A DNA stretch of 64,000 bases from Candidatus Hydrogenedentota bacterium (GCA_029974275.1 JARKSN010000313.1:2855-66854), one strand, 5' to 3'. Counted from the stretch's first letter, positions 18,067 to 34,344 are shown. Notes: generated by a model from the sequence alone, not told the origin. Program-made: numbers and translations.

Positions 18067-19113
18067 TCATGTGGAGCGCGGCAGGCCCGCGGCGGCCCAG
18101 GCGAACAACCGCCGCAACGCCCAATTGCTGCGGCCGCACAAACGCGAGGCCAGCACGACGGCCTTGACGGTGCGCCGCGAAATTTTCACGTCGGCGCCGG
18201 AGACGAAGTCGCGTTTCCGGTCGATCTGGCGCAGCGTCAGCACGGCCATGCCCAGCGCCCACAGACAAAACTGGCGTATGCCTTGTTCCGATCGCGGAAT
18301 GAGGAGGGTGTAGTCGAGCGCGTTGCGCAGGTGTCCGTGCGCCGTTGCAATCACATGCCCGAGGCCCTTTTCGAAGGCTTCGTCGCGTTGCTCAGGCGTA
18401 AGGCGGCTCAGATCGAACCCTTCCCGGCGAAAGATCGATGCGGGCAGCCAGCAGACGTTGCGCCTTTTGTCGTCCCACACGTCCTTGAGAATGTTCGTCA
18501 TTTGCAAGCCTTGTCCGAACGACACCGCCAAGGCCTTGAGCGCGGCGCGCTTTTTGGCGATGGACGGCGAGTGGTGGCAAAAGAGATCGGTCAACATTTC
18601 GCCCACAACACCCGCGACGTAATAGCAGTAGTCGTCGAGGTGTTGCTGATCGTCGAGGCCGTGGGCGAACGCGCCTTCTTGAAAGCGCGCCATGCCTTCC
18701 GCCATCACCCGCACGCACCGGGCGATCGCGGCGCGGTCTTCCGGCGCGAAGGCATGCGTCAGTCCAACCACCGCCGGCGTATGGGCGACAAGGTCGCGCT
18801 CGGCGTCAAGGACTCCTTCGATCAGACGGGGCGCGAGTTCCGCCGCGAAGCGTTCCGGCGACTCGCGCTCCGCCACGACGTCGACAAAACGCTCCGCAAA
18901 ACGACGCTTCTCGTCTGGATTCAGGGAAACGCAATCTTCAATCGTGTCGGCAATCCGGCACAGAAGGTACGCATTGCCGACGACGATGCGCACCGACTCC
19001 GGCAATTGCGGGATCGTGAGGGCAAACGTGCGCGAAACGCCCTGCAGCGCGGCGCTCTGGTAGGCGAGCGCCTCCTGAAACGGCACAGGCTGATTTTGGC
19101 TCTGCAACGACAT
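18067..19113 (-). CDS. Squalene/phytoene synthase family protein (HpnC/HpnD/CrtB-like)
   Basis: VSRTFALTI, the first Asp-rich motif ADTIED, YCYYVAGVVGEM, and the second Asp-rich motif ILKDVWDD are diagnostic of trans-isoprenyl diphosphate synthase head-to-head enzymes. Confidence 0.75.
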   Translation of the reverse strand: MSLQSQNQPVPFQEALAYQSAALQGVSRTFALTIPQLPESVRIVVGNAYLLCRIADTIEDCVSLNPDEKRRFAERFVDVVAERESPERFAAELAPRLIEGVLDAERDLVAHTPAVVGLTHAFAPEDRAAIARCVRVMAEGMARFQEGAFAHGLDDQQHLDDYCYYVAGVVGEMLTDLFCHHSPSIAKKRAALKALAVSFGQGLQMTNILKDVWDDKRRNVCWLPASIFRREGFDLSRLTPEQRDEAFEKGLGHVIATAHGHLRNALDYTLLIPRSEQGIRQFCLWALGMAVLTLRQIDRKRDFVSGADVKISRRTVKAVVLASRLCGRSNWALRRLFAWAAAGLPRST

Positions 19114-19309
19114 GAACGCCCCGAAACAAAACAGAAAAATCCATTATGCCGTGCAATCCGGCAACGTGCGATCCGCATCATAGTATCCGCACGCCCCACG
19201 GGGCTCAACTTCGTGACGCCCCACGAATGCGCCGCCCGGCGCAGGTGTTATCATCGAGAAAGGCGATCGTCTTTGCATGGCAACCCATAGACGCCAGGAG
19301 GAGGCCCGC

Positions 19310-21460
19310 ATGCGCGCCGCTCGAAACAACACGCCGCCGAATCGGCTTGCCCGTGCGACAAGCCCCTACTTGCGGCAACATGCGCACAATCCCGTGGATT
19401 GGTTTCCGTGGTGCGAAGAAGCGCTGCGAAAAGCGGAGCGCGAGGACAAGCCCATTTTCCTGTCCATCGGCTACTCCGCGTGTCACTGGTGTCATGTCAT
19501 GGAACGAGAGTCCTTTGAAGACAAGGACACCGCGGCGCTGCTCAACGCGCATTTCGTCAGCATCAAGGTTGATCGAGAAGAGCGGCCCGATCTCGACGAG
19601 CTCTACATGAGCGCGGTGCAACTCACGACGCAAAACGGCGGATGGCCCATGTCGGTGTTCCTGACGCCGGAGCGGATGCCGTTCTACTGCGGCACGTATT
19701 TCCCTCCGTCCGATCAGCATGGGCGCCCAGGCTTCCAGACCGTGCTCCGCGCATTGGCGAAGGCGTGGCGAGAACAACGCGACTTCATTCGCGGCAATGC
19801 GCGGCAACTTACCGAATGCCTTCGCCTCGGCGGAGCGGGGCGACCCGAGGAAAGCGCGCCGATACGCCCCGATCTGATCCGCCATGCGGCGGCGGCGCTG
19901 TCCATGAGCTTCGACCCCGAACATGGCGGCTGGGGCGGCGCGCCGAAATTTCCCGCGCCGGCATCGATCGCGACGCTGTTGCGCCACGCCTGGCGTCACG
20001 GAGATTCCCATGCTCTCGCCATGGCCTCGTCCACCTTGGAAGCCATGGCGCGCGGAGGCATTCACGACCATCTTGGCGGCGGCTTCCACCGGTATGCGGT
20101 CGACGCGGCATGGCATGTTCCCCACTTTGAAAAAATGCTCTACGACAATGCGCAACTCGCGGCAGCATATCTCGAAGGATACCAATGCACGAAAAAATCG
20201 CTTTTCCGGGAGACGGCGGAAGGAATTTTTCGGTATGTCCTGCGCGATCTGATTTCTCCGGAAGGCGGTTTCTTTTCCAGCGAAGACGCAGACAGCGACG
20301 GACAGGAAGGGATGTTCTATCTGTGGAAGCGCGATGAATTGGACGCCGTTCTCGGCAAGGACGATGCGGCGCTTTTCGCCCATTGCTATAACGTGCGCCC
20401 CGAGGGAAATTTCGATTCGCCCGAAACGCGCCACGCGGGCATGAACATCCTGCGCCGGGCATGGCCCATCGACCCGCACGAAGCCGTTTTTTGCGGGATG
20501 GAGGCGACCGCGCTGGAGGCAGCGCTGGAGCCGATGCGGACGCGCCTTTTCAACGTCCGCGCCCAACGCGCCCGGCCAGGACGAGACGACAAAGCGATCG
20601 CTTCCTGGAATGGAATGATGATCGCGGCGTTCGCGCGCGGCGCGCAGGCACTCCACGAGCCACGGTATGCCGAAGCGGCCCGGCGCGCCGCCGGGTTCAC
20701 GCTCGAACGCTTGCGTCACGATGGACTGCTGGCGCGCAGTTATCGCGATGGCGCGACAAGCGCGCCGGGCTTCCTGGACGACTATGCCCAGGTCGCTTCG
20801 GCTTTGGTTGACCTGTACGAGACCGAGTTCGATGCGCGTTGGCTGCGCGAGGCCAAGCTGCTTGCCGATCGCATGATCGCGTTGTTTTGGGATCGGGAGG
20901 CAGGCGGCTTTTTCAGCGCGCCCCACGGCCAAGAGGACCTTATCGCGCGACTCAAACCGGTCTACGATACGGCCGAACCTTCTGGCAACGCGGCGGCGGC
21001 GACGCTCCTGCTGCGCCTGGCCGCCTATTTTGATAACGCCGAATACCGGAAAACGGCGGAAATCGTGCTCGAACAAAATGCGGCCCTGCTTGAAACGGTT
21101 CCGCAAGCCATGGGCCGCATGCTCTGCGCGGCAGACCAATATCTGCATCCCCCGACGGAAATCGTGCTGGTCGGACCGCGCTCATGCGCCGACGTCCAGC
21201 GCATGGTGCGCGCATTGCACGAGCATTTTCTTCCGAATAAAGTAGTGGCCTTGGCGGATGCTGAAGACGATGACCCGGTTGCGTCGCGGCGCAGGCCATG
21301 GGCCGCCGTCAACGCCATGCAACGCGGCGCGGCCACGGCGCTTGTATGCAGCGATTTCACGTGCCTGCCGCCGCTGGCTACGCCCGAGGCGCTGGCGCAA
21401 GCGTTGGAAAAAGCCAACGGGAGGACGCACGAATGCGCACATGGATCCTCGTCGGATTGA
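19310..21460 (+). CDS. yyaL: Thioredoxin-domain protein YyaL (DUF255 plus six-hairpin glycosidase-like domain)
   Basis: GGAGGAGG RBS 7 nt before the [26 protein letters not shown]...[19 protein letters not shown] is the DUF255/thioredoxin-like N-terminus of YyaL. About 700 aa. Confidence 0.75.
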
Positions 21461-23166
21461 TCGCGTTGATAGGCGCGGGGCTGCTGGACCGTCCCGTGCA
21501 AGCGCAGTCATCTTCCCCGGCGATGCGCGTCGAAGCGGTTACGCAAACCGACGCCGCTCACCCAGGCTCCCGCCTCGACGTCGCCATCGTCGCCACCCTT
21601 CCCGAAGGCTGGCATACCAACTCCAACGCGCCGCTGGAGGCATTTCTGATACCCACCGAACTCACCGTGACGCCTCCCGCAGGCATTACGGTCGAGCGCA
21701 TCGCGTACCCCGAGGCCAAGCGCGTCACGTTCTCGTTCTCCTCCACGCCTGTCGCCGTGTACGATCGCGAGTTTGTGATGCGAGTGCAGCTGGCCCTTGC
21801 CAAGGACCTGGCTCCCGGCGCATATCTGGCAACGGGCGCGCTGCGCTACCAGGCCTGCAACGATCGCACCTGCGCCCCGCCCAAAACCGTCCCCGTGTCG
21901 ATCGCGGTGAACGTCGTTCCGCCTGATCGCGCCGTGACGCCACAGCGCCCGGAACTGTTCGATCAGCCCCTTTCCGCCGCGCCCGCCGAAACGGGGCGGT
22001 CCGAAGCGCCAACGACGCCGGTCGCGGAGCCTTCCCCCGGCGCCTGGAAAGAACGACTCGAACGTTTCGAGACGATGAGCGTCGGAAGTTTCATGACCGC
22101 CTCCGAATTCTTGCGCTTCCTCGAGGACGCGGAATCGGGGAGAGGGCGATCGGCGACGGGCTTGTTTGAGGGACGCAGCATCGCGACGGTGATCCTCTTG
22201 ACGTTGATCGGCGGTCTCGCGCTGAACCTGACGCCGTGCGTGTTGCCGTTGATTCCCATCAACATCGCGATCATCGGCGCCGGCGCACGCGCCAGTTCGC
22301 GCGGACGCGGCTTCGCTTTGGGCGCGGTGTATGGCGGCGGCATCGCTCTCGTCTACGGCGCGCTCGGACTGATCGTCGTGATCGCCGGAAAGACCTTTGG
22401 CGCGATCAACGCCTCGCCTTGGTTCAACGGCGCGATCGCCGTCGTGTTTGTCGCGCTCGCCTTGGCCATGTTCGACCTGTTCCTAATTGATTTCACCCGC
22501 TTTCAAGCCAAGATCGGCCTCAAGAAAAAAGAAGGCGGCAGCTATCCCGTCGCGTTTTTCATGGGGGGGATATCCGCGCTACTCGCGGGCGCGTGCGTGG
22601 CGCCCGTCGTGATCGCCGTCCTTCTTTTCTCGCAAGACCTGTACGCCAAGGGGTCGTCGGCCGCGTTGCTGCTTCCCTTCCTGTTGGGCGTGGGCATGGC
22701 CTTGCCCTGGCCCTTCGCGGGAGCCGGTCTTTCCTTTCTGCCCAAGCCCGGCAAATGGATGGAGCGCGTCAAATATGCCTTCGGCGTTTTTATCCTGCTC
22801 CTCGCCGGATACTACGGCTACCTGTCCTACAGTCTGTTCACCGCCCGCACTTCCGAAACCACGCACGTGGCCCAAAGCGTCGCCGCCCTCGAAACACACG
22901 GCTGGACCTCGTCGCTCGAAGAAGGTCTTGCCCGCGCCGCTTCCGAGAAGAAACCCGTGGTGATCGATTTCTGGGCCACCTGGTGCAAGAACTGTCAAAT
23001 CATGAACGAGACCACCTTCAAAGACCCTGAAGTTGTCCGCCGTCTCGATCGCTACGTCAAAATCAAATACCAGGCAGAGTCTCCCGACGATCCGCCGCAC
23101 AAGGAAATTCTCGACCGCTTCCGCGCCGTCGGTCTGCCTACAATCGTGGTCCTGCGTCCAAAATGA
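21433..23166 (+). CDS. dsbD: Thiol:disulfide interchange protein DsbD (protein-disulfide reductase)
   Basis: Signal peptide [19 protein letters not shown]-terminal DsbD-alpha domain with [12 protein letters not shown]. Central multi-TM CcdA-like domain. C-terminal thioredoxin [12 protein letters not shown]. Confidence 0.8.
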
Positions 23167-23257
23167 ATCGGGAGCCGGGACTTTTCTTTTGGACACTCAT
23201 GCTCTATAATGTCGCCAATAGCCAGCGGTTCCGATGCCGCGAATGGAGGAACTAGAA

Positions 23258-23824
23258 ATGAACCGAAAGGTGCGCTTGGGTGTCGCCGTATGTGTGTCCA
23301 TGTTGCTTGCCGCGTTCTTGGTCGTCGCCACGCACGCCGACGACGGCGCCACGTACGTCGGCGCCGCCAAGTGCAAGATGTGCCACAACAAAGCCGATGA
23401 GGGGCAAGTGTGGACGAAGTGGCAGGAATCGAAACATGCCAAAGCCTTCGCGACGTTGAAAACGGATGAAGCCAAAGCGGTCGCCGAAAAAGCGGGCGTT
23501 GCCACGGCTCCGTCCGAAGCGCCCGAATGCCTGCGCTGCCACGTGACCGCATATGAGAAAGACAAGCCACTCCCGGCGGACATCAAGATGGAGGACGGCG
23601 TCCAGTGCGAAAGCTGCCACGGCCCTGAGTCCGCGCACTTTGCCGCAGCCAAAAAGGCGCTTGCAGACAAGTCCATTCCCCAAGTCCTTTCGGGCGCGCC
23701 CAAGGAAGAAACGTGCAAGAAATGCCACAATCCGGAGAGTCCGACGTATAAGGAATTCAACTTCAAGTCGTTCTCCGAAAAGATTGCCCATCCCAACCCG
23801 TTGCGAAAGGCCCCCAAATCCTGA
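23258..23824 (+). CDS. Periplasmic tetraheme c-type cytochrome
   Basis: GGAGG RBS. Signal peptide. Four CxxCH motifs (CKMCH, CLRCH, CESCH, CKKCH). Confidence 0.75.
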   Translation: MNRKVRLGVAVCVSMLLAAFLVVATHADDGATYVGAAKCKMCHNKADEGQVWTKWQESKHAKAFATLKTDEAKAVAEKAGVATAPSEAPECLRCHVTAYEKDKPLPADIKMEDGVQCESCHGPESAHFAAAKKALADKSIPQVLSGAPKEETCKKCHNPESPTYKEFNFKSFSEKIAHPNPLRKAPKS

Positions 23825-23995
23825 TCGCGCCGTGACCCGAGCGAAGCTGTCCGTTTGCGTGCGATGCGCGGTTTCCGGAGAGGCCTTCCTTCGCACAGCA
23901 AGCCGAGGCCATGATTTCGCCCGCGCACGCCGCAGCTGTGAGTGAATAACGATTGGGCTGGGTTCCGATCCGGACGACTGGACCATGGAGACGCC

Positions 23996-24643
23996 ATGAA
24001 AACACGCATCCTGCTGTCCGCACTCGTAGTCTGTTCCCTCGGGTGCGATGCCGACAACGTCAAATCCATTACGCAAGCGCGGATGGTTCCCGCGCCCGCA
24101 CTGGCGACGGCGGACGGGACGGCGACGCAAGGATTTCATGCGGCGCACCCCCCTATCGAGGCATCGGGCATGGCGGGATCGCCGCATGCGCGGACGGTTC
24201 CCTTCCGTTGGACCAAGCCCGCTTCCTGGGCCGACATTCCGCCCACGTCCATGCGGCTCGCCAATTTTTCCATTCCTGACCGGCCCCGCGTCGAATGCTA
24301 TATTTCGACGTTGTCGGGCGCGGCGGGGGGCGTCGCCGCAAACGTCAACCGTTGGCGCAACCAGATGGGGCAACCCGATCTCGCCTCCGACGAGATCGCC
24401 GCGTTGCCGACGATCGAGGTGATGGGCAAACCGGCTTCGATGGTCGAGACGACGGGCTCCTACACCGGCATGAAAGGGGCCACCGAACCCAACTACACGT
24501 TGCGCGGCCTTGTCTTGGAATTGCCCGGCCAGGTTCTTTTCGTCAAGATGATTGGTCCAACGGAAGAAGTGGCTGCCTTGAAGGAGGATTTCGTGGCATT
24601 ATGCGCCTCGATCGCCTCCGTTCCGCCGGAAGACGCCCCGTGA
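23996..24643 (+). CDS. Lipoprotein of unknown function, embedded in the cytochrome c maturation cluster
   Basis: MKTRILLSALVVCSLGC lipobox signal. No CxxC motif and no recognised family. Confidence 0.5.
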   Translation: MKTRILLSALVVCSLGCDADNVKSITQARMVPAPALATADGTATQGFHAAHPPIEASGMAGSPHARTVPFRWTKPASWADIPPTSMRLANFSIPDRPRVECYISTLSGAAGGVAANVNRWRNQMGQPDLASDEIAALPTIEVMGKPASMVETTGSYTGMKGATEPNYTLRGLVLELPGQVLFVKMIGPTEEVAALKEDFVALCASIASVPPEDAP

Positions 24644-25809
24644 AGATCATCCTTCAACGCGGGTTTCTCGCCCTTTCCTCGTACGGATTCTCCTGCATAT
24701 TGTTTTTGTTCCTGTTTGTGCTGACCTATCTGGGAACCATCGAACAGGTTACGCACGGCCTGTACGAAACCAGCCGGAAGTATTTCGAGTCCGTTTTTCT
24801 GACGCATTACCTGTGGGGAGTCGTTCCCGTGCCGCTCCCCGGGGCCTACCTCCTGCTCGTCCTGCTTGCCCTCAATCTCGTAGCCTGCGCCTTCGTGCGC
24901 AACCGGCTGAGTTGGGCGCGCACCGGCGTGTTGCTGGCCCATGCAGGCATCTTGCTCTTGCTGCTTGGCGCCTTCCTCTCTTTTCAACGCTCGCAACAGG
25001 GCCAACTGACACTGTACGAAAATGAGCACGCCCATGAATTCCAAAGCTATCAGCAATGGGAGATCGGGCTCTGTCCTCTTGCGAAACCCGGAACGACGGT
25101 GGAAGAGCGCATCATTTCGCCCCGAGATCTCGCCCAGGGGAAGCGGAACGCCCCTGTCTCTTTCGAATTTCCTGGGCTTCCCATCCGCCTTACGGTGTCG
25201 GATTTCGCTAGGAATGCCCGTCCTCAATCCGCAAGCGGATCTTCCGTCGCCGGCAAGGCGATCGACGGCGTCGTATTGACGGCGCTTCCCCCCGCTCGGG
25301 ATGGCGAGACGAATATTCCAGGAGCCTACGTAACCGTGGAGGACCTGTCCAGCGGCGAGCAGCGCGAAGGCATTTTGTGGGGCGCCGCGCGATCCCCGCT
25401 TGCGTTGGAATTGGGCGGCGTCTCCTGGGCGATCGAACTGCGGCGCCAGCGTTGGACCTTGCCTTTCCAGGTGACGCTTGATTCATTCGTCCGGGAGGTC
25501 TATCCGCGCACCTCCATCCCGAAGGTGTTTGAGAGCACAGTGACCGTCCGCGACGGCGATCTCGAGCAGCGTTTCAAGATCGCCATGAATGAGCCGTTGC
25601 GCTACAAGGGCTATACGTTTTTTCAATCCTCCTGGGGGCCGCCGAACGCCGGGCCCAACGATCGGCTCTACTCCACGCTCGCCGTGGTGAAAAATCCGGC
25701 GGAAAAATTCCCCTTGTACGCTTCCGCCGTCATATCCCTGGGCATGTCCATTCACTTCGGGCTGGCGCTCATCCCGCGCCTCAAGAACCGGAGACGGAGG
25801 ACGGCATGA
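24601..25809 (+). CDS. ccsB: Cytochrome c biogenesis protein CcsB/ResB (System II)
   Basis: N-terminal TM helices (FSCILFLFLFVLTYLGTIEQ), a large periplasmic domain, and the C-terminal RYKGYTFFQSSWGP plus final TM helix typical of the ResB family. Start ambiguous: ATG at 24601 overlaps the lipoprotein by 43 nt, or GTG at 24642 overlaps its stop. Confidence 0.7.
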   Translation: MRLDRLRSAGRRPVKIILQRGFLALSSYGFSCILFLFLFVLTYLGTIEQVTHGLYETSRKYFESVFLTHYLWGVVPVPLPGAYLLLVLLALNLVACAFVRNRLSWARTGVLLAHAGILLLLLGAFLSFQRSQQGQLTLYENEHAHEFQSYQQWEIGLCPLAKPGTTVEERIISPRDLAQGKRNAPVSFEFPGLPIRLTVSDFARNARPQSASGSSVAGKAIDGVVLTALPPARDGETNIPGAYVTVEDLSSGEQREGILWGAARSPLALELGGVSWAIELRRQRWTLPFQVTLDSFVREVYPRTSIPKVFESTVTVRDGDLEQRFKIAMNEPLRYKGYTFFQSSWGPPNAGPNDRLYSTLAVVKNPAEKFPLYASAVISLGMSIHFGLALIPRLKNRRRRTA

Positions 25810-27794
25810 GACCTTTGTTTTTCATACGCGTCGCGGCGATTTCCGGGGGGTTGTTTCTGGCATCCGCCGGTCTGGCCGGCACCCAGCCCGTGCAGGATCC
25901 TTCCGCGCCCCCGTCTTGGGATGCGCCAACCGAGCGGCTGTTTTCTTCCCTGCCCATCCAGGACGAGGGACGCATCAAGCCCATGGGGACATTCGCGGCG
26001 TACACGTTGATGAAGTTCAGCGGCAAGCAAACCTGCAAGGACCCGTCCGGGAATACGCTTTCCGCGACCGCTTGGCTTATGCACTGCCTGTTTCATCCGC
26101 GCTATGCGCAGACCTGCAACGTGTTCCGGGTGGACGATTCCGGCGTTATGGTGGCGCTCGGATTGCCGTTTACGCGCAAGCGCGACCTCTACGCGCACCA
26201 GGATCTCGCGCCCGCCGCCGCAAAACTCTCCGCGCTGGCCGAACAATACGCGCATGTGCCCGCCAAACAGCGGACGCCTCTCCAAACTCAACTCCTCAAC
26301 CTGGCCAGCAACGTTCACGATTTCGAATCGCTGCTGGGGGCGATGGACTTTACGGAAGTTTCGTTTACGTTTCCATCTTCCGATCCGCTGGGCGCCCTCT
26401 TTCCCCAAGATCGCCCGTATCGCATCAGCGACGCGCTCGCCAAGTCCGGCGCGATTCGAGCCGCCGTCATCGCGATGCGATCCCAGGCGGGCGCCGAGAA
26501 AGACCAGGATCCCCAGGGGTGGGCCTCGGTGGGCGTTTTGTTGGGAGAAATGGAAAAGATCGCGGCCCACGGCCATGTTCTTGCCCTTTTTCCGCCCCCG
26601 CCGGATTCGGGAGAAAAAGAATGGATGGCTCCTGCCGACGTCGTCGAATGGGCCTTCGATCGCGACGAGGAAGAGCCGTCCGCCGCTCCCATCGCTTTGT
26701 TGCGTTCGCTCGAGGATCTCGCCCTCGCCCGGCATGACGCCGCTGCATTCGCCGCCAACCTACGTCTCTTTCATGACGCCGTCACCCAGATCGCCATGGC
26801 CCGGGGCGAATACGAAAAAGTTCCTCTCGAAAACGCCTACCACCGCGCCAAGCTTTTTCAACGCAGCTTGATGTTGTATATCCTGGCCTTTCTGATCCTC
26901 GCGGCATCCTGGGCATTGCCCAAGCGAATGACCGAGAACACGTTTACGGACGCATTGTTGATGTTCGCCGTGTTTGCGCCCACGGCATGTCTCGGCGCGG
27001 GCATTGTTTTACGTTGCATCATTCGCGAGCGCCCCCCGGTGACGACGCTCTACGAAACCATTCTCTTCGTAACGTTCACGGCGGCGCTTATCGCCCTTCT
27101 CATTGAATTTCTTTCCAAACAACGTTTGGCGCTGTCGCTGGGGGCGATTCTTGGCGTGTTGGGAATGTTTTTGGCCAACAAATACGAAATCGAGGAGGGC
27201 GTGGACACGATGCCCAGCATGGTGGCCGTGCTGGATTCGAATTTCTGGTTGTCCACGCACGTGACCACCATTGCCATCGGGTATGCGGCCGGCCTGCTTG
27301 CGGGGGCCATCGCCCATGTATACCTTTTGGGAAAGCTCATGGGATTTCGGAAAGATGACCCCGTTTTTTATGGGGACATTACGCGCATGGTGTATGGGAC
27401 CTTGTGTTTCAGCTTGTTGTTTTCCGTGATTGGCACCGTGCTGGGCGGCGTCTGGGCCAACGAAAGCTGGGGCCGCTTCTGGGGATGGGACCCCAAGGAA
27501 AACGGGGCCCTTCTTATCGTTCTCTGGCAATTGGCCCTTCTCCATGCGCGATTGGGAGGTTATCTTCGCGATCACGGCGTCAACATGGGGGCGGTTTTTG
27601 GCGGCATTGTCGTCGCTTTCTCTTGGTTTGGGGTGAATTTGCTGGGCGTCGGCTTGCATAGCTATGGGTTTGCCACAGGAACCCATCGCGCCTTGCTGCT
27701 TTTCTACGCCGTCGAGGGCGTGGCGCTTTTGTTGGGCTGGGTGGCATGGCTGCGCTCGGACAGCGGATCCGCCGGGCAAAGCGCGAAGACATAG
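25806..27794 (+). CDS. ccsA: Cytochrome c-type biogenesis protein CcsA/ResC (System II heme lyase subunit) with large N-terminal periplasmic extension
   Basis: Start overlaps the ccsB stop (ATGA). C-terminal WGRFWGWDPKENGALLIVLW tryptophan-rich WWD heme-handling motif and conserved His-containing TM helices. 662 aa. Confidence 0.8.
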   Translation: MRPLFFIRVAAISGGLFLASAGLAGTQPVQDPSAPPSWDAPTERLFSSLPIQDEGRIKPMGTFAAYTLMKFSGKQTCKDPSGNTLSATAWLMHCLFHPRYAQTCNVFRVDDSGVMVALGLPFTRKRDLYAHQDLAPAAAKLSALAEQYAHVPAKQRTPLQTQLLNLASNVHDFESLLGAMDFTEVSFTFPSSDPLGALFPQDRPYRISDALAKSGAIRAAVIAMRSQAGAEKDQDPQGWASVGVLLGEMEKIAAHGHVLALFPPPPDSGEKEWMAPADVVEWAFDRDEEEPSAAPIALLRSLEDLALARHDAAAFAANLRLFHDAVTQIAMARGEYEKVPLENAYHRAKLFQRSLMLYILAFLILAASWALPKRMTENTFTDALLMFAVFAPTACLGAGIVLRCIIRERPPVTTLYETILFVTFTAALIALLIEFLSKQRLALSLGAILGVLGMFLANKYEIEEGVDTMPSMVAVLDSNFWLSTHVTTIAIGYAAGLLAGAIAHVYLLGKLMGFRKDDPVFYGDITRMVYGTLCFSLLFSVIGTVLGGVWANESWGRFWGWDPKENGALLIVLWQLALLHARLGGYLRDHGVNMGAVFGGIVVAFSWFGVNLLGVGLHSYGFATGTHRALLLFYAVEGVALLLGWVAWLRSDSGSAGQSAKT

Positions 27795-27881
27795 GCGCAG
27801 AGGTGCAAGGGGTTCCGAAGGGGGACGAGGTTCGCAAAGGCGGGATTGCAGATAAAAAATCTCGTTTCTCTCTTTTTTCCC

Positions 27882-27910
27882 TTTACAAGTTTCATGAAAT
27901 GCACTACAAT
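27882..27910 (+). promoter_or_regulatory. Sigma-70-like promoter upstream of the multiheme cytochrome / beta-barrel cassette
   Basis: TTTACA - 17 nt - TACAAT, in the 425-nt gap between ccsA and the first cytochrome gene. Predicts an about 300-nt leader containing a GGCGTTTTC...GAAAACGCC inverted repeat. Confidence 0.4.
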
Positions 27911-28219
27911 GCGTCTATTCCTGATGGTCTTCGAGGTTGCGGATGCTGAAACGGCGTTTTCGGAACGTGCCTTGCGGACGGAAGAGTTCGCGTGAAAACG
28001 CCTGCGTGCGCTCCCGAGCGATGGTCCGGGGCGGGGATGAATGCGCCGCAGGTTCGAGTGAAGCGCGCCAGCCTTTTGTGCAGTGCTAGCAGTACCCGTA
28101 ATCGTGAGAGAGGCCTATGCGTGCATGGTCTCGGAACGATGCGTGCGGTTCCATGAGCGATGGGTATCGAGATGGCCGGGGTGTGTAGCGTGTATGGGAA
28201 TGCGTGAAAGGGACTGATC

Positions 28220-30784
28220 ATGAAACGTCGGATCGCAGCGCCTATAATCTCTCTTCTGGCAACGGGGATGCTTGCGCTTGGAGTGGGGGGATGCGGCCTG
28301 GTCGTGGTGTCGCCTTCCGTGGCGTCGTTGAAGGTTGGTCAGACCGTGGGGCTGACCGCGAGCGGCACGTCGGACACGAGTTTCACGTGGCGCACCTCGA
28401 ATCCGGCCGTGGCTTCGGTAAGTGAGGGCGGGGTGGTGACGGCGCTGGCGATTGGGTCGGCCCGCATCACGGCGACCGGCAACGCTTCCGGTCAAGTGGG
28501 GAGCGCCGTCATCAACGTCGTGCCGTTTGTGGCGCGCGTCACGGTCGTTCCGGACGCGGCTTCCCTGGAGGCAGGCAAGACCTTGGCGCTGGCGGTTTCC
28601 TCGAATGATCCCCTTGACGCGAATTTTGAATGGGTTTCCAGCGATACGGCCGTTGCGACGGTCGACGCTTCCGGCGTGGTGACGGGGGCGGCTTCAGGAA
28701 TGGCCGTCATTTCGGCCACGGGCGTTCATAGCGGTGCGGGCGCCAAGGGGACATGCTCGATCACGGTCACCCCGCGCGTCATTCTTCCCCCTGTTGCGAA
28801 CGCGGGCGTCAGCGGAACGGCTTCCTACAACACCACGGTCGCGTTGGACGGGTCGTTGAGCAGCGATCCGCAGAGTTTGACGTTGACCTATGCGTGGACG
28901 CAGACTTCGGGGCCTGCGGCGACGCTTACGGGGGCGACGACGAACAAGCCTTCCTTCAAGCCTGCGCAACCGGGGTCGTACGTGTTTGAGCTGGTTGTGA
29001 ACAACGGGACCTTGTCCAGCGCTCCCGCGACGGTCACGATCACGGCGGTGAACAATCCCCCTGCGGCGGCCATAGCGATTGACGCCATTTCGGATATCGA
29101 GCGGCAGTACCTGGGGTTGGAAAGCACCTTGTCGAGCGGCTTGTCCAATGTCGGCGTCGGCACGGACGTGTATTTGCTGGGATCGGCCACGGACATCAAC
29201 GGCGATGCCATCGTCGGGTTTCAGTGGTCGATCGTGTCGCGCCCTGCCGGCTCCCTGGCGGCGTTGACCACCCCCACGGAGGCGGACACGGCGTTTCGCC
29301 CGGATGTCGCTGGCACGTATCGGATTTCGCTGATCGCTTCCGACGGTCTGAAAGCGGCGGGGGCCGCCGCCACGCAGGATATTCACGCGGGCTTCTGGGT
29401 CGGCGAAGGCACCGACGTTGGCCAGAGCGCCTGTGCGCCGTGTCACAACGGCACGGTCGCGCCGGACAAGACCACGGAGTGGCTGGGCACCAAACACGCC
29501 ATCACGTTTGCCAATCGGATTGATGGGCTGTACGGTCCGACGTATCCCGAGTATTGCCGCCGCTGTCATACGGTTGGGTATGACAAAACCGGCACGGCGG
29601 CAAACAATGGATTCGACGACGTGGCGGCGTCGGTAGGCTGGACGCTTCCCGGCACGCTACAGCCGGGCAATTGGGCGGCCCTGATCGCCGACACGCCGCA
29701 GTTGGCGCGTCTGGCGAATGTCCAATGCGAGAATTGTCATGGCCCGGCGAGCCAGCATGTGGCCGGGGCGGCGTTCACGCGCGACAAGAAGATGTCGGTT
29801 TCCTTCGGCAGCGGCAACTGCGGCATGTGTCATGGACAGGAAGAGGAATGGAAGCTGACCGGTCATGCGGACGAAAACGCGGAGCCGTGGACGATGCCGG
29901 TGGGGCCGTCTCGGACGGCGTGTGTGCGATGCCATTCGGGGGTGGGTTTTATCGACACGATTGGCGGGGTCACGCCGGCGCGCACGACCAAGCAGAATCC
30001 CACGTGCGCGGTGTGTCATGATCCCCACAGCGACGCCCACGAAGCCCAGTTGCGTTTGGGGGATGAGGTCACCTTGCCGGGCAACGTGCGCGTGACGGGG
30101 GTCGGGCCGAACGCGGTATGCATGTATTGCCACAACGCGCGGCGGGCTCCGGCGGACGCCCTCGCTGGGTCCTATCCGCATTACAGCACCGCGTCGGAGA
30201 TGGTCCTGGGGGTCAATGGGATCACCTATTCCAACGGTCCCATTCCCAATTCGCCGCATACCTTGATGAAGACGGGATGCGTGGACTGTCATATGGCGCC
30301 GACGCCGGGCGTGGAACGCGACAATGTGCATCAGCCGGGCGAGGGCGTGGTGGGGGCGCATACCTTGGCAATCACCGCTCGAACCTCCGATCCGGCAAGC
30401 CCGGATTATGGGTTTGAGAACGTGCAGCACGCATGCAACACGGCGGGGTGCCATGACAAGAGCCCCATCGTCGCGGTGAATCGCACGGCGTATGGAGATT
30501 ATGATGGCGATGGCGCGATCGAGGGCGTCCAGGATGAGGTGCGGGATTTGATGGCGCTGGTGAAGACCGCGATCGTGAACAGCGGGGTGACGGCGCTTGC
30601 CAACAACCCCTACTGGGCCAACGTCACCACCAATGCCCAGCGCAGGGCCATTTACAACTATTCCCTGGCAAAGGGCGATGGCAGTTACGGCATTCACAAT
30701 ACGGGTTTCGTGGTTGGATTGCTCCAGTTGTCCTACAAAGATTTGAAGGGGCATGACGTTCCGGGGGCGACGCTCCGGTATTGA
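28220..30784 (+). CDS. Outer-surface lipoprotein multiheme c-type cytochrome with three N-terminal bacterial Ig-like (Big_2) domains (8 CxxCH plus one CX4CH)
   Basis: Lipobox LALGVGGCG. Three Big_2-like repeats (TSNPAVASVSEGGVVTALAIGSARITATG; SSDTAVATVDASGVVTGAASGMAVISATG). Heme motifs CAPCH, CRRCH, CENCH, CGMCH, CVRCH, CAVCH, CMYCH, CVDCH plus C-terminal CNTAGCH. Confidence 0.8.
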   Translation: MKRRIAAPIISLLATGMLALGVGGCGLVVVSPSVASLKVGQTVGLTASGTSDTSFTWRTSNPAVASVSEGGVVTALAIGSARITATGNASGQVGSAVINVVPFVARVTVVPDAASLEAGKTLALAVSSNDPLDANFEWVSSDTAVATVDASGVVTGAASGMAVISATGVHSGAGAKGTCSITVTPRVILPPVANAGVSGTASYNTTVALDGSLSSDPQSLTLTYAWTQTSGPAATLTGATTNKPSFKPAQPGSYVFELVVNNGTLSSAPATVTITAVNNPPAAAIAIDAISDIERQYLGLESTLSSGLSNVGVGTDVYLLGSATDINGDAIVGFQWSIVSRPAGSLAALTTPTEADTAFRPDVAGTYRISLIASDGLKAAGAAATQDIHAGFWVGEGTDVGQSACAPCHNGTVAPDKTTEWLGTKHAITFANRIDGLYGPTYPEYCRRCHTVGYDKTGTAANNGFDDVAASVGWTLPGTLQPGNWAALIADTPQLARLANVQCENCHGPASQHVAGAAFTRDKKMSVSFGSGNCGMCHGQEEEWKLTGHADENAEPWTMPVGPSRTACVRCHSGVGFIDTIGGVTPARTTKQNPTCAVCHDPHSDAHEAQLRLGDEVTLPGNVRVTGVGPNAVCMYCHNARRAPADALAGSYPHYSTASEMVLGVNGITYSNGPIPNSPHTLMKTGCVDCHMAPTPGVERDNVHQPGEGVVGAHTLAITARTSDPASPDYGFENVQHACNTAGCHDKSPIVAVNRTAYGDYDGDGAIEGVQDEVRDLMALVKTAIVNSGVTALANNPYWANVTTNAQRRAIYNYSLAKGDGSYGIHNTGFVVGLLQLSYKDLKGHDVPGATLRY

Positions 30785-30848
30785 GCGCAGGTTTTCCAGG
30801 GGCGCGAAGGGGCGGCGTGCGTGCGGGACATAACGTGAGAATGGCGGC

Positions 30849-31646
30849 ATGAACGTGATGTGGAAATCGCTGGCGGTTCCGGCAGGACTGTTGGGTTTTG
30901 TCGTGGCGAGTTCTCTGGGCGCGCAACAGTGCGGCGGGCCGGCCACGGTGGGAACGGGGGTTTGCATCGCGTGTCATGACGGGCGTTCCGCCACGGACCA
31001 ACTCGATTTTCTGGTCAGCCAGCATGCCGGCATCGAGTGCGAAGCCTGCCACGGACCGGGCTACGTGCATGTACGCAATGGCGGACGCGGCGGACGGTTC
31101 ATCAAAAACCCCGCCAAGGAGTCATTCGCGAACGCGTATCGGCTTTGCACCGCTTGCCATGCGGAGCAGGTGGCTGGTTTTCTGGCGAGCGGTCACGGCC
31201 AGAAACAGGCGGCGACGTGCCATGACTGTCACGACGTGCATGCGCCCGGCGGCGCCCGACGCAATCCGAACAACAACGAGATGTGTCTGACATGCCATGC
31301 GCCGTTCGGATTTTCGGACAGCGCGGCCATCGAGGCGCATACGATGTATCATCCGAATGATCCGGGGGGGACGGGCGCGAGTCGTTGCATCTCCTGTCAC
31401 ATGCCGCCGTTGGACGCGATCCTTCAGGCAGACGGCCCGCATGATCACACGCTGGCGACGATCCCGCCGATTCGTTCCAACGAGGCCGCGCAGGCGGGCG
31501 CGGTTCCGACGCCGCCCAATTCGTGTTCGGGCATCGCGGGCTGTCACGATGGTTCCGTGCCCGGCGCGCCGATTTTTGACGTCGACAATTTCACCTTTAA
31601 CGGCATACTCCAATCGCTCTATGAGCAGGTGGGTCAGATGCCGTAA
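30849..31646 (+). CDS. Periplasmic multiheme c-type cytochrome (6 CxxCH plus one CX5CH)
   Basis: Signal peptide MNVMWKSLAVPAGLLGFVVASSLGAQQ. Motifs CIACH, CEACH, CTACH, CHDCH, CLTCH, CISCH and C-terminal CSGIAGCH. Confidence 0.8.
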   Translation: MNVMWKSLAVPAGLLGFVVASSLGAQQCGGPATVGTGVCIACHDGRSATDQLDFLVSQHAGIECEACHGPGYVHVRNGGRGGRFIKNPAKESFANAYRLCTACHAEQVAGFLASGHGQKQAATCHDCHDVHAPGGARRNPNNNEMCLTCHAPFGFSDSAAIEAHTMYHPNDPGGTGASRCISCHMPPLDAILQADGPHDHTLATIPPIRSNEAAQAGAVPTPPNSCSGIAGCHDGSVPGAPIFDVDNFTFNGILQSLYEQVGQMP

Positions 31647-31673
31647 CGCGGCGGTCCGGGAACGGTCGGGGTC

Positions 31674-33302
31674 GTGATCCGGCGGCGCATGGCGGAGGCG
31701 GGGAGACGCACGGTGGGAGTTGAGCACGCATTTCGATGGCGGTGGGCGTTGGCAGGCGTTGTCCTATGGGGTTTCGTGATCGGCGCTTCCGCACGCGCCG
31801 CGGATCAAGGAGACGACGCTTCTTCGGAAGCCGGGCAGGAAACCCTTCAGGCGCCGCGCGCGGCTGCTCCTGAATCGACCGCGGGGGATGAAAAGCCCGA
31901 GAAGACGCCGAAGAAGTGGTTGCGGGGCAGCTTTGAAACCGGTCTGGACGCCGCATGGTCGGACCGGGATTCGGACATCAATCTGGATCAAACCTTGCGC
32001 GTGAAGATTGACCCGCCGAATCATGAGCGGATTCATATTCGCGCATCGTTGTGGCTGCGGGAAGACCTTGACGGCGACGAGTCGCGGACGAGCGGCTTGC
32101 GCGATGTCGACGACGCCTACGGGTCGAGCGTTCGGTTTCGTCCGCTATACATGTATGTGGACGTGGACGATCTCTGGGGCGATTCCACGTTGCGCCTCGG
32201 CCGGCAACGCATCCAGGAAGGAACGGCCTGGAACCGGATCGACGGCCTTTACTTCAAACAGCGCGCGGCGTGGGGGGACTGGTATGTTTTCGCAGGCGCG
32301 CGGGCTTCCTTGTACACAGACGCGCACAGGGATTTCGCGGGCGGCGGCGGCGTCTCGTTCCGCCCGGCCCCGGCGACGCGGATAGCGCTGGACGGGTATT
32401 ACGGCACGGAGCGCGATCGCGATCGCGATGAGACGTTTTTCTGGCCGTTGGCGTGGGGCGCCTGGTTCAACCTCGCCTCGCCGAGGGCGGTCCCGGACGA
32501 TCGGGAAGACCATCAGATATCGCTGAGCGCGTGGCAAGCGGTCGGCGCGCATCTCATGCTGTATGGCCGTCTCACGGAGCAAAGCGGCGCGTTTCACAGC
32601 GCGCTCCTCAGCGCGACGGGAACCATCCCCGCGTGGAACCTCACCTACGAGGCGGCCTACCGCGCCCAGACCGACGCCATTGGGGATCGACTGCGCGATC
32701 TGGGCGGTTTTTACCAGACCGTGGGGCGCCGCGACAAGCGCCAGGACTTTCGGATCGCCTTGCATCGCCCGCTGACGGAAAAATGGACGCTTTCGCTGGA
32801 AAGCGAATTTCGCCGAAGCGACGCCCATGCTTCCGGTTTCGGCAATCGCGATTATGATCGTTACGCGGCGATCCTGTCGGCGGAAAAGCTGCGGGGCGGC
32901 ATCGACGCCACCGTCGGTCTCGCGTGGTGGCGCACCGATCGCGATCAGGGGTCGACGGCCGTCACGGCGGAGGTTGCCAAGAAATGGAGCCGCCTTTCGC
33001 TGGCGTTGGGGGCTGATTTCGAGCGATACGAGGACCGGATTGTTTATCATCCCCTGTCGTTTTGGGCGGACCAATTCACGCCGGGGACGATCTTCGGCGC
33101 GTATCCATTCGTCAATCGTTTGCTGTATCTCGCGGATGGCGTGGCGATCGACACGCGCGAAAACGTGCGGTCGATCTACGGAAAGGCCAAATGGACCGTC
33201 CGGCCTGACCATGACGTGAACGCGCGCGTCTCGTACGAGACGGACAGCGAGCCGGATTCGCCGTACTGGCGGGTGCAGATGGGATATGTCGTTCGTTTCT
33301 AA
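31674..33302 (+). CDS. Outer-membrane beta-barrel protein (porin-like), candidate porin component of a porin-cytochrome complex
   Basis: Signal peptide ending ASARA. About 500 aa of alternating amphipathic beta-strand-like segments rich in Tyr, Trp, Arg and Asp. Terminates YVVRF: a C-terminal aromatic Phe is the classic BAM recognition signature of OM beta-barrels. Lies between multiheme cytochrome genes. Start may be M6 at 31689. Confidence 0.6.
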   Translation: MIRRRMAEAGRRTVGVEHAFRWRWALAGVVLWGFVIGASARAADQGDDASSEAGQETLQAPRAAAPESTAGDEKPEKTPKKWLRGSFETGLDAAWSDRDSDINLDQTLRVKIDPPNHERIHIRASLWLREDLDGDESRTSGLRDVDDAYGSSVRFRPLYMYVDVDDLWGDSTLRLGRQRIQEGTAWNRIDGLYFKQRAAWGDWYVFAGARASLYTDAHRDFAGGGGVSFRPAPATRIALDGYYGTERDRDRDETFFWPLAWGAWFNLASPRAVPDDREDHQISLSAWQAVGAHLMLYGRLTEQSGAFHSALLSATGTIPAWNLTYEAAYRAQTDAIGDRLRDLGGFYQTVGRRDKRQDFRIALHRPLTEKWTLSLESEFRRSDAHASGFGNRDYDRYAAILSAEKLRGGIDATVGLAWWRTDRDQGSTAVTAEVAKKWSRLSLALGADFERYEDRIVYHPLSFWADQFTPGTIFGAYPFVNRLLYLADGVAIDTRENVRSIYGKAKWTVRPDHDVNARVSYETDSEPDSPYWRVQMGYVVRF

Positions 33303-33321
33303 CGCGAAGGAGTGTGCTGCG

Positions 33322-34344
33322 ATGCCGCGCCGCAACGGAAAGCTATGGTTGATGACGGGCCTGCTCGTTGCGCTTGCGGGCGCGTGCATGACGTATTCGG
33401 TGACTTCCTTGGCGCGCAAGGACCGCGGTATCCGCGCCCACCATGCCCAGCACGCCAAGGAAGGGCTGGCCTGCGCCGACTGCCACGCTTTCGACAAGGG
33501 GGAGGCTGTTTTTCCCGGTCATGACACCTGCAGCGCCTGCCACGAGGTCGACGCCGAGCTCACGCCCGGCAAGGCGTGCGAGAAATGCCATACGAAGGAG
33601 GGCTACGCGATCGAGCGCTATGTCAAGCGCGTGCGGGATGAAGTGAAATTCGCGCATCCGGTTCATCTTGCCAAAGGCATCGAATGCGCCGTCTGCCATG
33701 CCGATCCCGACAAGTCCCTGCTGTCGACCGGATCGCTGAAACCGTTCTGCATGGACTGCCATGGCAAGACCGATCCCGCGCTGAATGCTTGCGAGACCTG
33801 TCACGCCGTCATCAACAAGACCGTCCGCCCGACGGAACGCGGCGGAGTCCGCTTGGCGCACGATGCCCCCGCCATTTGGGAACGCGTGCATGGCCGCGAG
33901 TCGCGGGTCGATCCGAAATACTGCGCGTTGTGCCACGACCAGGAGGATGATTGCGAGGATTGTCACCGCAAGACGCCTCCCCGGGATCATACCGTGGCGT
34001 GGCGTCGCGACGGGCACGGCCTGCGCGCCCAATGGGATATCGAGAAATGCTCCACCTGTCATGAAGAAGACATGTGCATCAAGTGTCACCGGAACGCCGC
34101 GCCGCGATCGCACGCCGCCGGGTGGGGAAGCCCCGCCAATCTTCATTGCGCGACATGCCATTATCCGCCTGCGGGGGAAGGATGCGTGACGTGTCATGAG
34201 ACCGTCTCGCATGCGACGGCCATGCCGTCGCCGCATGATATGGGCATTTTCCCGCCAAAATGCGGCCGCTGTCATCCCGGAGGATTGCCCAATCGCGCGC
34301 CCCACATCATGAACGGCAGCGCGCGCTGCGCCGTTTGCCACTGA
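33322..34344 (+). CDS. Multiheme c-type cytochrome, 14 CxxCH motifs (c7-polymer-like)
   Basis: Signal peptide MPRRNGKLWLMTGLLVALAGAC (lipobox-like). CADCH, CSACH, CEKCH, CAVCH, CMDCH, CETCH, CALCH, CEDCH, CSTCH, CIKCH, CATCH, CVTCH, CGRCH, CAVCH: one heme per about 24 residues. Overlaps the barrel gene by 17 nt if started at 33286. Confidence 0.8.
   Translation: MPRRNGKLWLMTGLLVALAGACMTYSVTSLARKDRGIRAHHAQHAKEGLACADCHAFDKGEAVFPGHDTCSACHEVDAELTPGKACEKCHTKEGYAIERYVKRVRDEVKFAHPVHLAKGIECAVCHADPDKSLLSTGSLKPFCMDCHGKTDPALNACETCHAVINKTVRPTERGGVRLAHDAPAIWERVHGRESRVDPKYCALCHDQEDDCEDCHRKTPPRDHTVAWRRDGHGLRAQWDIEKCSTCHEEDMCIKCHRNAAPRSHAAGWGSPANLHCATCHYPPAGEGCVTCHETVSHATAMPSPHDMGIFPPKCGRCHPGGLPNRAPHIMNGSARCAVCH

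Follow-up and report, generated by a model that had tools for sequence, protein, structure and literature searches.

System II cytochrome c maturation is usually described as CcsB plus CcsA (or a fused CcsBA) together with a thiol-reduction branch, and the solved structures are those of fused enzymes working alone. The usual third gene beside resB-resC or ccsBA encodes a membrane-tethered periplasmic protein of the ResA/CcsX/HCF164 kind, which, like CcmG, is a thioredoxin-like apocytochrome reductase. We analyzed a 64,000-nucleotide (nt) stretch of DNA from a Candidatus Hydrogenedentota bacterium (GCA_029974275.1 JARKSN010000313.1:2855-66854; referred to as a whole as the window; ∼62% G+C), of which positions 19,310 to 27,794 are shown above. 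There, a gene for a 215-amino-acid (aa) lipoprotein, which we call X, stands directly upstream of ccsB (resB) and ccsA. The CcsB and CcsA of the window are together colinear with the fused CcsBA of Helicobacter hepaticus (PDB 7s9y/7s9z) and Bacteroides thetaiotaomicron (PDB 25vk), running through the transmembrane (TM) histidine TM-His1, the first periplasmic domain (PD1)/beta-cap, TM segments, the second periplasmic domain (PD2), and the WWD/P-His core. Unlike these fused enzymes, which are encoded by one gene and have no described or detected X counterpart, the window has two synthase genes and X as a third gene. We conclude that X is very probably linked functionally to System II and that it is likely to be a lineage-specific third component of the split CcsB/CcsA holocytochrome c synthase. 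This supports an earlier note, made from the sequence alone, that had flagged the lipoprotein as a candidate System II accessory factor: X fits into no known family, and relatives do carry it in their ccs loci, the two points set in advance on which that proposal could have failed. The module consists of the following features:

23996-24643, + strand: X, 215-aa lipoprotein with a signal peptide and the lipobox SLGC
23996-24046, + strand: signal peptide and lipobox of X (MKTRILLSALVVCSLG-C17), read from the sequence, with the lipobox Cys near-invariant in alignment A1
24047-24199, + strand: tether of X, ∼50 residues, low-complexity and poorly conserved (predicted local distance difference test score [pLDDT] of 36 to 66 for residues 18 to 68; gap-rich and variable in A1)
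24200-24643, + strand: Mog1/PsbP-fold domain of X (residues 69 to 215) plus the stop codon, carrying the family signature
24640-25809, + strand: ccsB/resB, 389 aa (PF05140, E = 1e-16)
25806-27794, + strand: ccsA, 662 aa (PF01578, E = 1e-22; TIGR03144, E = 4e-37)

The association of X with ccsB-ccsA was found from both directions. All seven looked-up loci of X homologues (33 to 42% identity), which came from two other Hydrogenedentes lineages, Verrucomicrobiales, and three Planctomycetes-type metagenome-assembled genomes (MAGs), place X directly upstream of ResB-CcsA on the same strand; each pairs a short ResB (384 to 488 aa) with a long CcsA (641 to 802 aa), and every other neighbor is different. 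A scan for the motif ANVNRWRxQ, with one genome taken per species, confirmed at least 589 stretches, and the best 80 loci were analyzed. Wherever the downstream DNA suffices in these 80 (it ends too early for the downstream genes in L035, L066, and L087), the order is X, ccsB, and then ccsA with an N-terminal domain, except in L028, where X lies directly after ccsA and not before ccsB. Among the X-ccsB-ccsA loci is that of a cultured bacterium, Brevifollis gellanilyticus NBRC 108608 (L077). The arrangement with X directly upstream of ResB-CcsA extends to the most distant X relatives found, whose identity is 26% and 29%. At L170, an extra 152-aa open reading frame (ORF) separates the distant X of 26% identity from a shortened, 266-aa ResB.

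For the reverse test, 80 metagenome loci were chosen by CcsB similarity alone, using a pattern derived from a 4-sequence CcsB alignment. Upstream flank was available for 66 of them, and X was immediately upstream in 57, within ∼500 nt in 2, and missing in cis from 7. X is thus the most constant neighbor of ccsB-ccsA across Hydrogenedentota, Planctomycetota, Verrucomicrobiota, and Lentisphaeria. The spacing is also tight. In the window, the X stop and the ccsB start share a GTGA overlap, a junction absent from the earlier note, and the most plausible ccsB start (GTG at 24640) agrees with the N termini of homologues; ccsB and ccsA overlap in turn by ATGA. Estimated over 147 loci, the distance between the X stop and the ccsB start is 10 nt at the median; the two genes overlap in 46 cases, by 4 nt in 35 of these, and in 59 others they are 0 to 30 nt apart. 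The association between X and ccsBA is far beyond chance, and its pattern is the one expected for a stoichiometric partner. Three X-ccsBA modules lie on contigs labeled as Nitrospiraceae (L013), Anaeromyxobacter (L081), and Bifidobacteriaceae (L086) MAGs; mis-binning seems more likely than a true occurrence behind these labels, at least for the Bifidobacteriaceae.

The synthase that X accompanies resembles the fused enzymes closely. CcsB has TM segments at residues 7 to 38, 57 to 91, 90 to 117, and 359 to 381, with PD1 at ∼118 to 358; H101, the TM-His1 equivalent, is invariant among the aligned homologues, and the CcsB profile aligns to residues 58 to 311 of the H. hepaticus structure 7s9y (E = 4e-19). 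PF05140 profile, topology, and conserved TM His therefore all agree with a System II CcsB/ResB. CcsA comprises an N-terminal signal or TM segment, a periplasmic domain of ∼320 residues (26 to 347, nt 25881-26846), and eight TM segments, with the PF01578 match confined to residues 414 to 618. Its WWD motif, WANESWGRFWGWDPKENG, occupies residues 550 to 567 (nt 27453-27506) in columns that are invariant in 7 homologues, and H485, H580, and H618, also invariant, align with the CcsBA structures, so that the WWD motif, the two periplasmic His on either side of it, and the TM His are all in place.

The large N-terminal extension of CcsA, to which the earlier note had drawn attention, is real and is kept in all syntenic loci, but it is not unusual: by profile alignment, it is the PD2 of fused CcsBA. 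A profile of seven CcsA sequences is colinear with B. thetaiotaomicron 25vk residues 253 to 403 and 411 to 803 and with H. hepaticus 7s9y residues 529 to 925. Within it, profile positions 22 to 176 align to 25vk 253 to 403, colinear with the core match, which identifies PD2 even though the protein is split, and a GRxKPM motif is common to the CcsA PD2 and fused CcsBA. A pair of domains in the periplasm (PD1 and PD2) is the hallmark of the fused enzyme (PMC10663686). Because the CcsA extension aligns with PD2 of the solved fused CcsBA, the CcsB and CcsA of the window are, as judged from these alignments, a CcsBA split between PD1 and PD2, with all catalytic features present.

X itself has a signal peptide ending in a lipobox with its Cys and is probably a bacterial lipoprotein, presumably lipidated; of 224 X-family proteins, 181 show a lipobox-like motif. 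The earlier note had described it as having no CxxC and no recognizable family. CxxC is indeed absent from the X sequence, and X has no Pfam or NCBIfam match and no PDB sequence match; 23 homologues likewise lack a Pfam or NCBIfam match, even at E values up to 1, and the curated PsbP, DUF1795, and LpqN family profiles give no significant match to X. It is not an orphan, however, but part of a large unannotated family. A “hypothetical protein” from a Candidatus Hydrogenedentes MAG shares 99% identity with X, a word-indexed search returned 81 relatives, and an exhaustive profile search returned 10,959 cluster representatives (50% identity) at E ≤ 1e-3 and 8,280 at E ≤ 1e-10. Every source name seen in the family was “hypothetical protein,” and the hosts are Hydrogenedentota, Planctomycetota, Verrucomicrobiota, and Lentisphaeria.

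Most Planctomycetes members carry two to three tandem X domains; among 227 retrieved proteins of the family, one domain is present in 35, two in 185, and three in 7. Alignment A1 defines a signature that begins with W72, P75, W78, M86-R87, and E100-C101-Y102, continues through helix 112-123 (G111-G112-x3-N116-V-N118-R119-W120-R121-x-Q123), and ends with G154, F182-V-K184-M-x-G187-P188, F199, and S205. Domain by domain, the 185 proteins with two domains and the 7 with three retain the signature residues at 85 to 100%, apart from M86, which falls to 54% in first domains. C101, within the E-C-Y motif, is the single near-invariant Cys of X, an addition to the earlier note, and is replaced by Ala or Val in 6 to 15% of domains. 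Neither the alignment nor the per-domain counts contain an invariant His.

The predicted model is confident, and the domain of residues 69 to 215 has a Mog1/PsbP-like fold, an alpha-beta-alpha sandwich built around a central antiparallel sheet. The match figures were 12.5 for LpqN, 11.8 for BT_1490, 11.3 for Apa, 11.1 for CyanoP, 10.9 for Mog1, 9.8 for PnsL1, and 9.1 for DcrB, and several type VI secretion system immunity and chaperone proteins were also among the matches. These are protein-binding accessory modules, some of them (LpqN, CyanoP/PsbP, PnsL1, and DcrB) lipoproteins whose docking site is the periplasmic or lumenal face of a membrane machine. CyanoP docks on photosystem II, and LpqN docks on MmpL transporters. 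The closest match, LpqN of Mycobacterium tuberculosis (PDB 6e5d), is only 12% identical to X and differs in phylum, partner, and pathway, whereas CyanoP/PsbP and PnsL1, extrinsic proteins of photosystem II and NAD(P)H dehydrogenase (NDH), differ from X in sequence family (∼10% identity, no Pfam match) and in partner machine, and X has a signature motif of its own.

Three other identities for X were considered and rejected on fold and sequence. X lacks CxxC and no thioredoxin appeared among its fold matches; therefore, it is not a ResA/CcsX replacement, although it shares with those proteins, and with CcmG, a membrane-tethered periplasmic location. Reductant in the window more likely comes from the three-domain DsbD encoded upstream than from X. 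Since no CcsBA chain appeared among the fold matches either, X is not a detached CcsBA domain. A CcmE-type chaperone would have an OB (oligonucleotide/oligosaccharide-binding) fold and a heme-binding His in HxxxY, and X has another fold and no invariant His.

We propose that X is exported and lipid-anchored at the outer face of the cytoplasmic membrane, where its flexible tether of ∼50 residues, carrying the Mog1/PsbP-fold protein-binding domain, would be long enough to reach the PD1/PD2 chamber. X would be made in fixed proportion with CcsB because the two reading frames are translationally coupled. Its domain, or the two to three tandem domains of most Planctomycetes, may dock at the periplasmic chamber formed by CcsB PD1 and CcsA PD2, and, while the thioether bonds form, a conserved polar/aromatic site (R87, E100-C101-Y102, N116, N118, R119, W120, Q123, and K184) could hold either the apocytochrome in its unfolded state or the active site loaded with heme. 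In System II, X could thus correspond to an extrinsic subunit or a substrate chaperone. To this specific version, docking combined with substrate handling, we assign somewhat less than an even chance. Retention of the same site in every tandem domain favors a repeated or generic ligand (apocytochrome segments, possibly heme) over a docking surface alone. Because seven loci lack X in cis and fused CcsBA is self-sufficient, we conclude that X modulates or assists the core chemistry and does not perform it. More tentatively still, System II of the Planctomycetes-Verrucomicrobia-Chlamydiae (PVC) superphylum and Hydrogenedentota might be a three-component machine, with X as a required periplasmic chaperone for unfolded apocytochrome (CxxCH segments) or heme, its site repeated in each tandem domain, feeding the chamber of the split CcsB/CcsA.

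Several points weigh against X as a component of the synthase. Seven of the CcsB-picked loci have no X in cis (L091, L101, L102, L115, L116, L128, and L137), and in four of these (L091, L115, L116, and L137), the gene for a four-heme cytochrome, cyt4, abuts ccsB in its place; X may therefore be dispensable for some synthase paralogues or be supplied in trans. No X-CcsB fusion was found among the 120 best CcsB homologues (309 to 478 aa), and the H. hepaticus enzyme, a fused CcsBA, works without such a partner (PMC10663686, PMC8112865). The case for X as a putative CcsB-CcsA subunit is one of genomic linkage, and its physical association with CcsB/CcsA, like its ligand, is something that we infer. 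A signature kept in every tandem domain would be unneeded for a single CcsBA docking site, and the ligand could be apocytochrome, heme, or another molecule. Substitution of C101 argues against an indispensable catalytic thiol, and the conserved residues were read from an alignment, which makes their grouping into one pocket putative.

Some of these points feed other explanations. One, which we regard as unlikely, is that X handles heme in the periplasm as a functional CcmE analogue that buffers heme, protects it, or hands it over at the external WWD site, or scavenges heme released by the synthase, with each domain binding heme through Cys, Tyr, or Met plus basic residues. The near-invariant M86, C101, Y102, R87, R119, K184, W78, and W120 are of the heme-ligation or propionate-binding type, the site recurs in every tandem domain as a small-ligand site would, and LpqN, whose fold is the closest to that of X, binds small hydrophobic molecules. 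However, no heme-binding member of the Mog1/PsbP fold is known, the X family has no invariant His, C101 and M86 vary as described above, and CcsBA has a WWD/P-His site of its own, to which it delivers heme directly (PMC10663686). The periplasmic, membrane-tethered helpers of System I, namely, the apocytochrome chaperone CcmI/CcmH and the heme chaperone CcmE, may be functional analogues of X in that they hold substrate or heme, but their folds (tetratricopeptide repeat [TPR] and OB, respectively) are unrelated to that of X, and the pathway differs.

It is likewise improbable that X is purely structural, an extrinsic subunit or assembly factor that joins CcsB (PD1) to CcsA (PD2) without touching substrate, as CyanoP/PsbP does on photosystem II. 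PsbP, CyanoP, PnsL1, and LpqN are all extrinsic partners of membrane complexes, X is translationally coupled to ccsB, and it occurs only with the split PD1-plus-PD2 synthase, none having been detected in lineages with fused CcsBA. A purely structural role is hard to reconcile with the same signature in two or three tandem domains if there is a single docking site, and some split ccsB-ccsA loci have no X in cis. The last explanation, that X is an envelope lipoprotein unrelated to cytochrome maturation and kept in the operon for historical or regulatory reasons, is very doubtful. In its favor, 7 of the 66 CcsB-picked loci lack X, and a marginal family match (P0081) lies in another context, away from ResB-CcsA, but adjacency and orientation hold over four phyla down to 26% identity while all other neighbors change, 4-nt start/stop overlaps are frequent, and the rearranged L028 keeps X beside ccsA.

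System II and both the split and the fused forms of CcsBA are already known; what is new is a conserved PsbP-fold lipoprotein accompanying System II. In the open-access literature, we found no paper that connects ccsBA of PVC bacteria with a PsbP-like lipoprotein or with a third gene of any sort, and a survey of System II in anammox bacteria makes no mention of such a third gene. A conserved and coupled third gene across large, cytochrome-rich phyla suggests an extra extrinsic partner for the split PD1-plus-PD2 synthase, gives ∼10,000 clusters of “hypothetical” lipoproteins a testable functional context, and adds a new class of partner for the PsbP/Mog1 fold. It also offers a handle on how apocytochromes, especially very large or multiheme ones, reach and leave the System II active site, and it suggests coexpression of X as a means of improving heterologous production of PVC and Hydrogenedentes multiheme cytochromes. 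If the three-component reading is true, X would be the first System II substrate or heme chaperone described and would give the PsbP fold a biochemical role that is new to it. Specialists would be surprised that a partner this widespread was overlooked, and the hypothesis is directly testable.

The genes surrounding the module in the window are as follows:

19277-21460, + strand: YyaL/DUF255 thioredoxin-domain protein (PF03190, E = 1e-77)
21433-23166, + strand: dsbD, three-domain thiol-disulfide reductase (PF11412, PF02683, PF13899; NF001419 DsbD, E = 3e-59)
23234-23824, + strand: cyt4, four-heme c554-like periplasmic cytochrome (four CxxCH; PF13435, E = 3e-19; signal or anchor segment)
28220-34344, + strand: downstream multiheme cassette, three multiheme cytochromes plus a 542-aa protein without a family match
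28220-30784, + strand: Big_2/PKD cytochrome with 8 CxxCH and one CNTAGCH (CX4CH)
30849-31646, + strand: cytochrome with 6 CxxCH and one CSGIAGCH (CX5CH)
31674-33302, + strand: 542-aa protein with no Pfam match, overlapping the start of the 14-heme gene
33286-34344, + strand: 14-heme cytochrome

ORF listing and profile searches placed dsbD, cyt4, X, ccsB, and ccsA on the + strand; the coordinates, common direction, 28-nt yyaL/dsbD overlap, and ccsB/ccsA ATGA junction reported earlier were all reproduced in the ORF listing. Gaps of 67 nt and 171 nt (23825-23995) follow dsbD and cyt4, respectively, and the multiheme genes start downstream of ccsA, at 28220. A pattern scan found no promoter or terminator in 23825-23995, and promoter and terminator pattern counts across 19000-28400 were not above those of shuffled sequence, which makes them uninformative on operon boundaries. 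In L002, a 45-aa ORF was called in the gap equivalent to 23825-23995.

Orthologues of cyt4 (37 to 59% identity) lie directly upstream of X or ccsB in L001 to L003, L010, L011, L015, L017, L094, L097, L122, L131, L091, L115, and L137. Conservation of cyt4 as an upstream partner of the ccs module is confined to a Hydrogenedentes subclass that lies inside multiheme clusters, and the modules that cyt4 precedes in many Hydrogenedentes lineages, whether X-ccsBA or ccsBA alone, are always inside such clusters, alongside 13- to 14-heme and 5- to 10-heme proteins. Outside this class, an ORF with at least 4 hemes is missing from the vicinity of 148 of the 158 X-ccsBA loci; X is common to both classes. 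The earlier statement that heme attachment machinery stands beside its heavy multiheme clients is therefore correct for this locus but specific to the cyt4-bearing Hydrogenedentes subclass. Two MAGs, HYD1 (L011/L016) and CAVUWV01 (L015/L019), each contain two X-ccsB-ccsA modules, one with cyt4 upstream and one without, which suggests one housekeeping synthase and one cluster-dedicated synthase.

Some proteins of the multiheme clusters have conserved CX3CH, CX4CH, or CX5CH motifs. Orthologous six-heme proteins of L015, L017, and L137 again contain the CX5CH motif, as C[AS]GxxGCH, and a CX3CH motif, CGxVCH, is shared by NapC/NirT-like neighbors of L001, L010, L094, and L097; these motifs may be extra, nonstandard heme sites served by the adjacent synthase. 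Wolinella succinogenes has dedicated System II lyases, NrfI and CcsA1. The likeness lies in the Hydrogenedentes MAGs with two modules, the one of the window type being inside a multiheme cluster with conserved nonstandard CX3-5CH motifs; the window synthase is tied to those motifs by proximity. In L091 and L137, clear homologues of the 542-aa protein stand ahead of a 14-heme cytochrome and cyt4-ccsB. The 542-aa protein may form the outer-membrane barrel in a conduit of the porin-cytochrome type.

Neither of the two genes upstream of cyt4 is a conserved neighbor of the module elsewhere, and as evidence, their adjacency to it in the window is weak. DsbD has its DsbD_N, DsbD_TM, and thioredoxin domains with all Cys pairs present (C142/C147, C269/C388, and C518xxC521), as in a three-domain DsbD, and it probably supplies reductant for CxxCH thiols; dsbD does not adjoin the module in the other loci inspected, save for one weak match in L042. 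The suggestion that YyaL adds a further redox component was not borne out. YyaL has neither a signal peptide nor a TM segment, which makes it probably cytoplasmic, outside the module, and unrelated to periplasmic heme attachment, and it is absent from the module neighborhood in all other loci inspected; a place for it in a periplasmic redox chain was rejected for want of an export signal and of conserved synteny. The CHWCH of YyaL (C69-C72) resembles a heme motif by chance.

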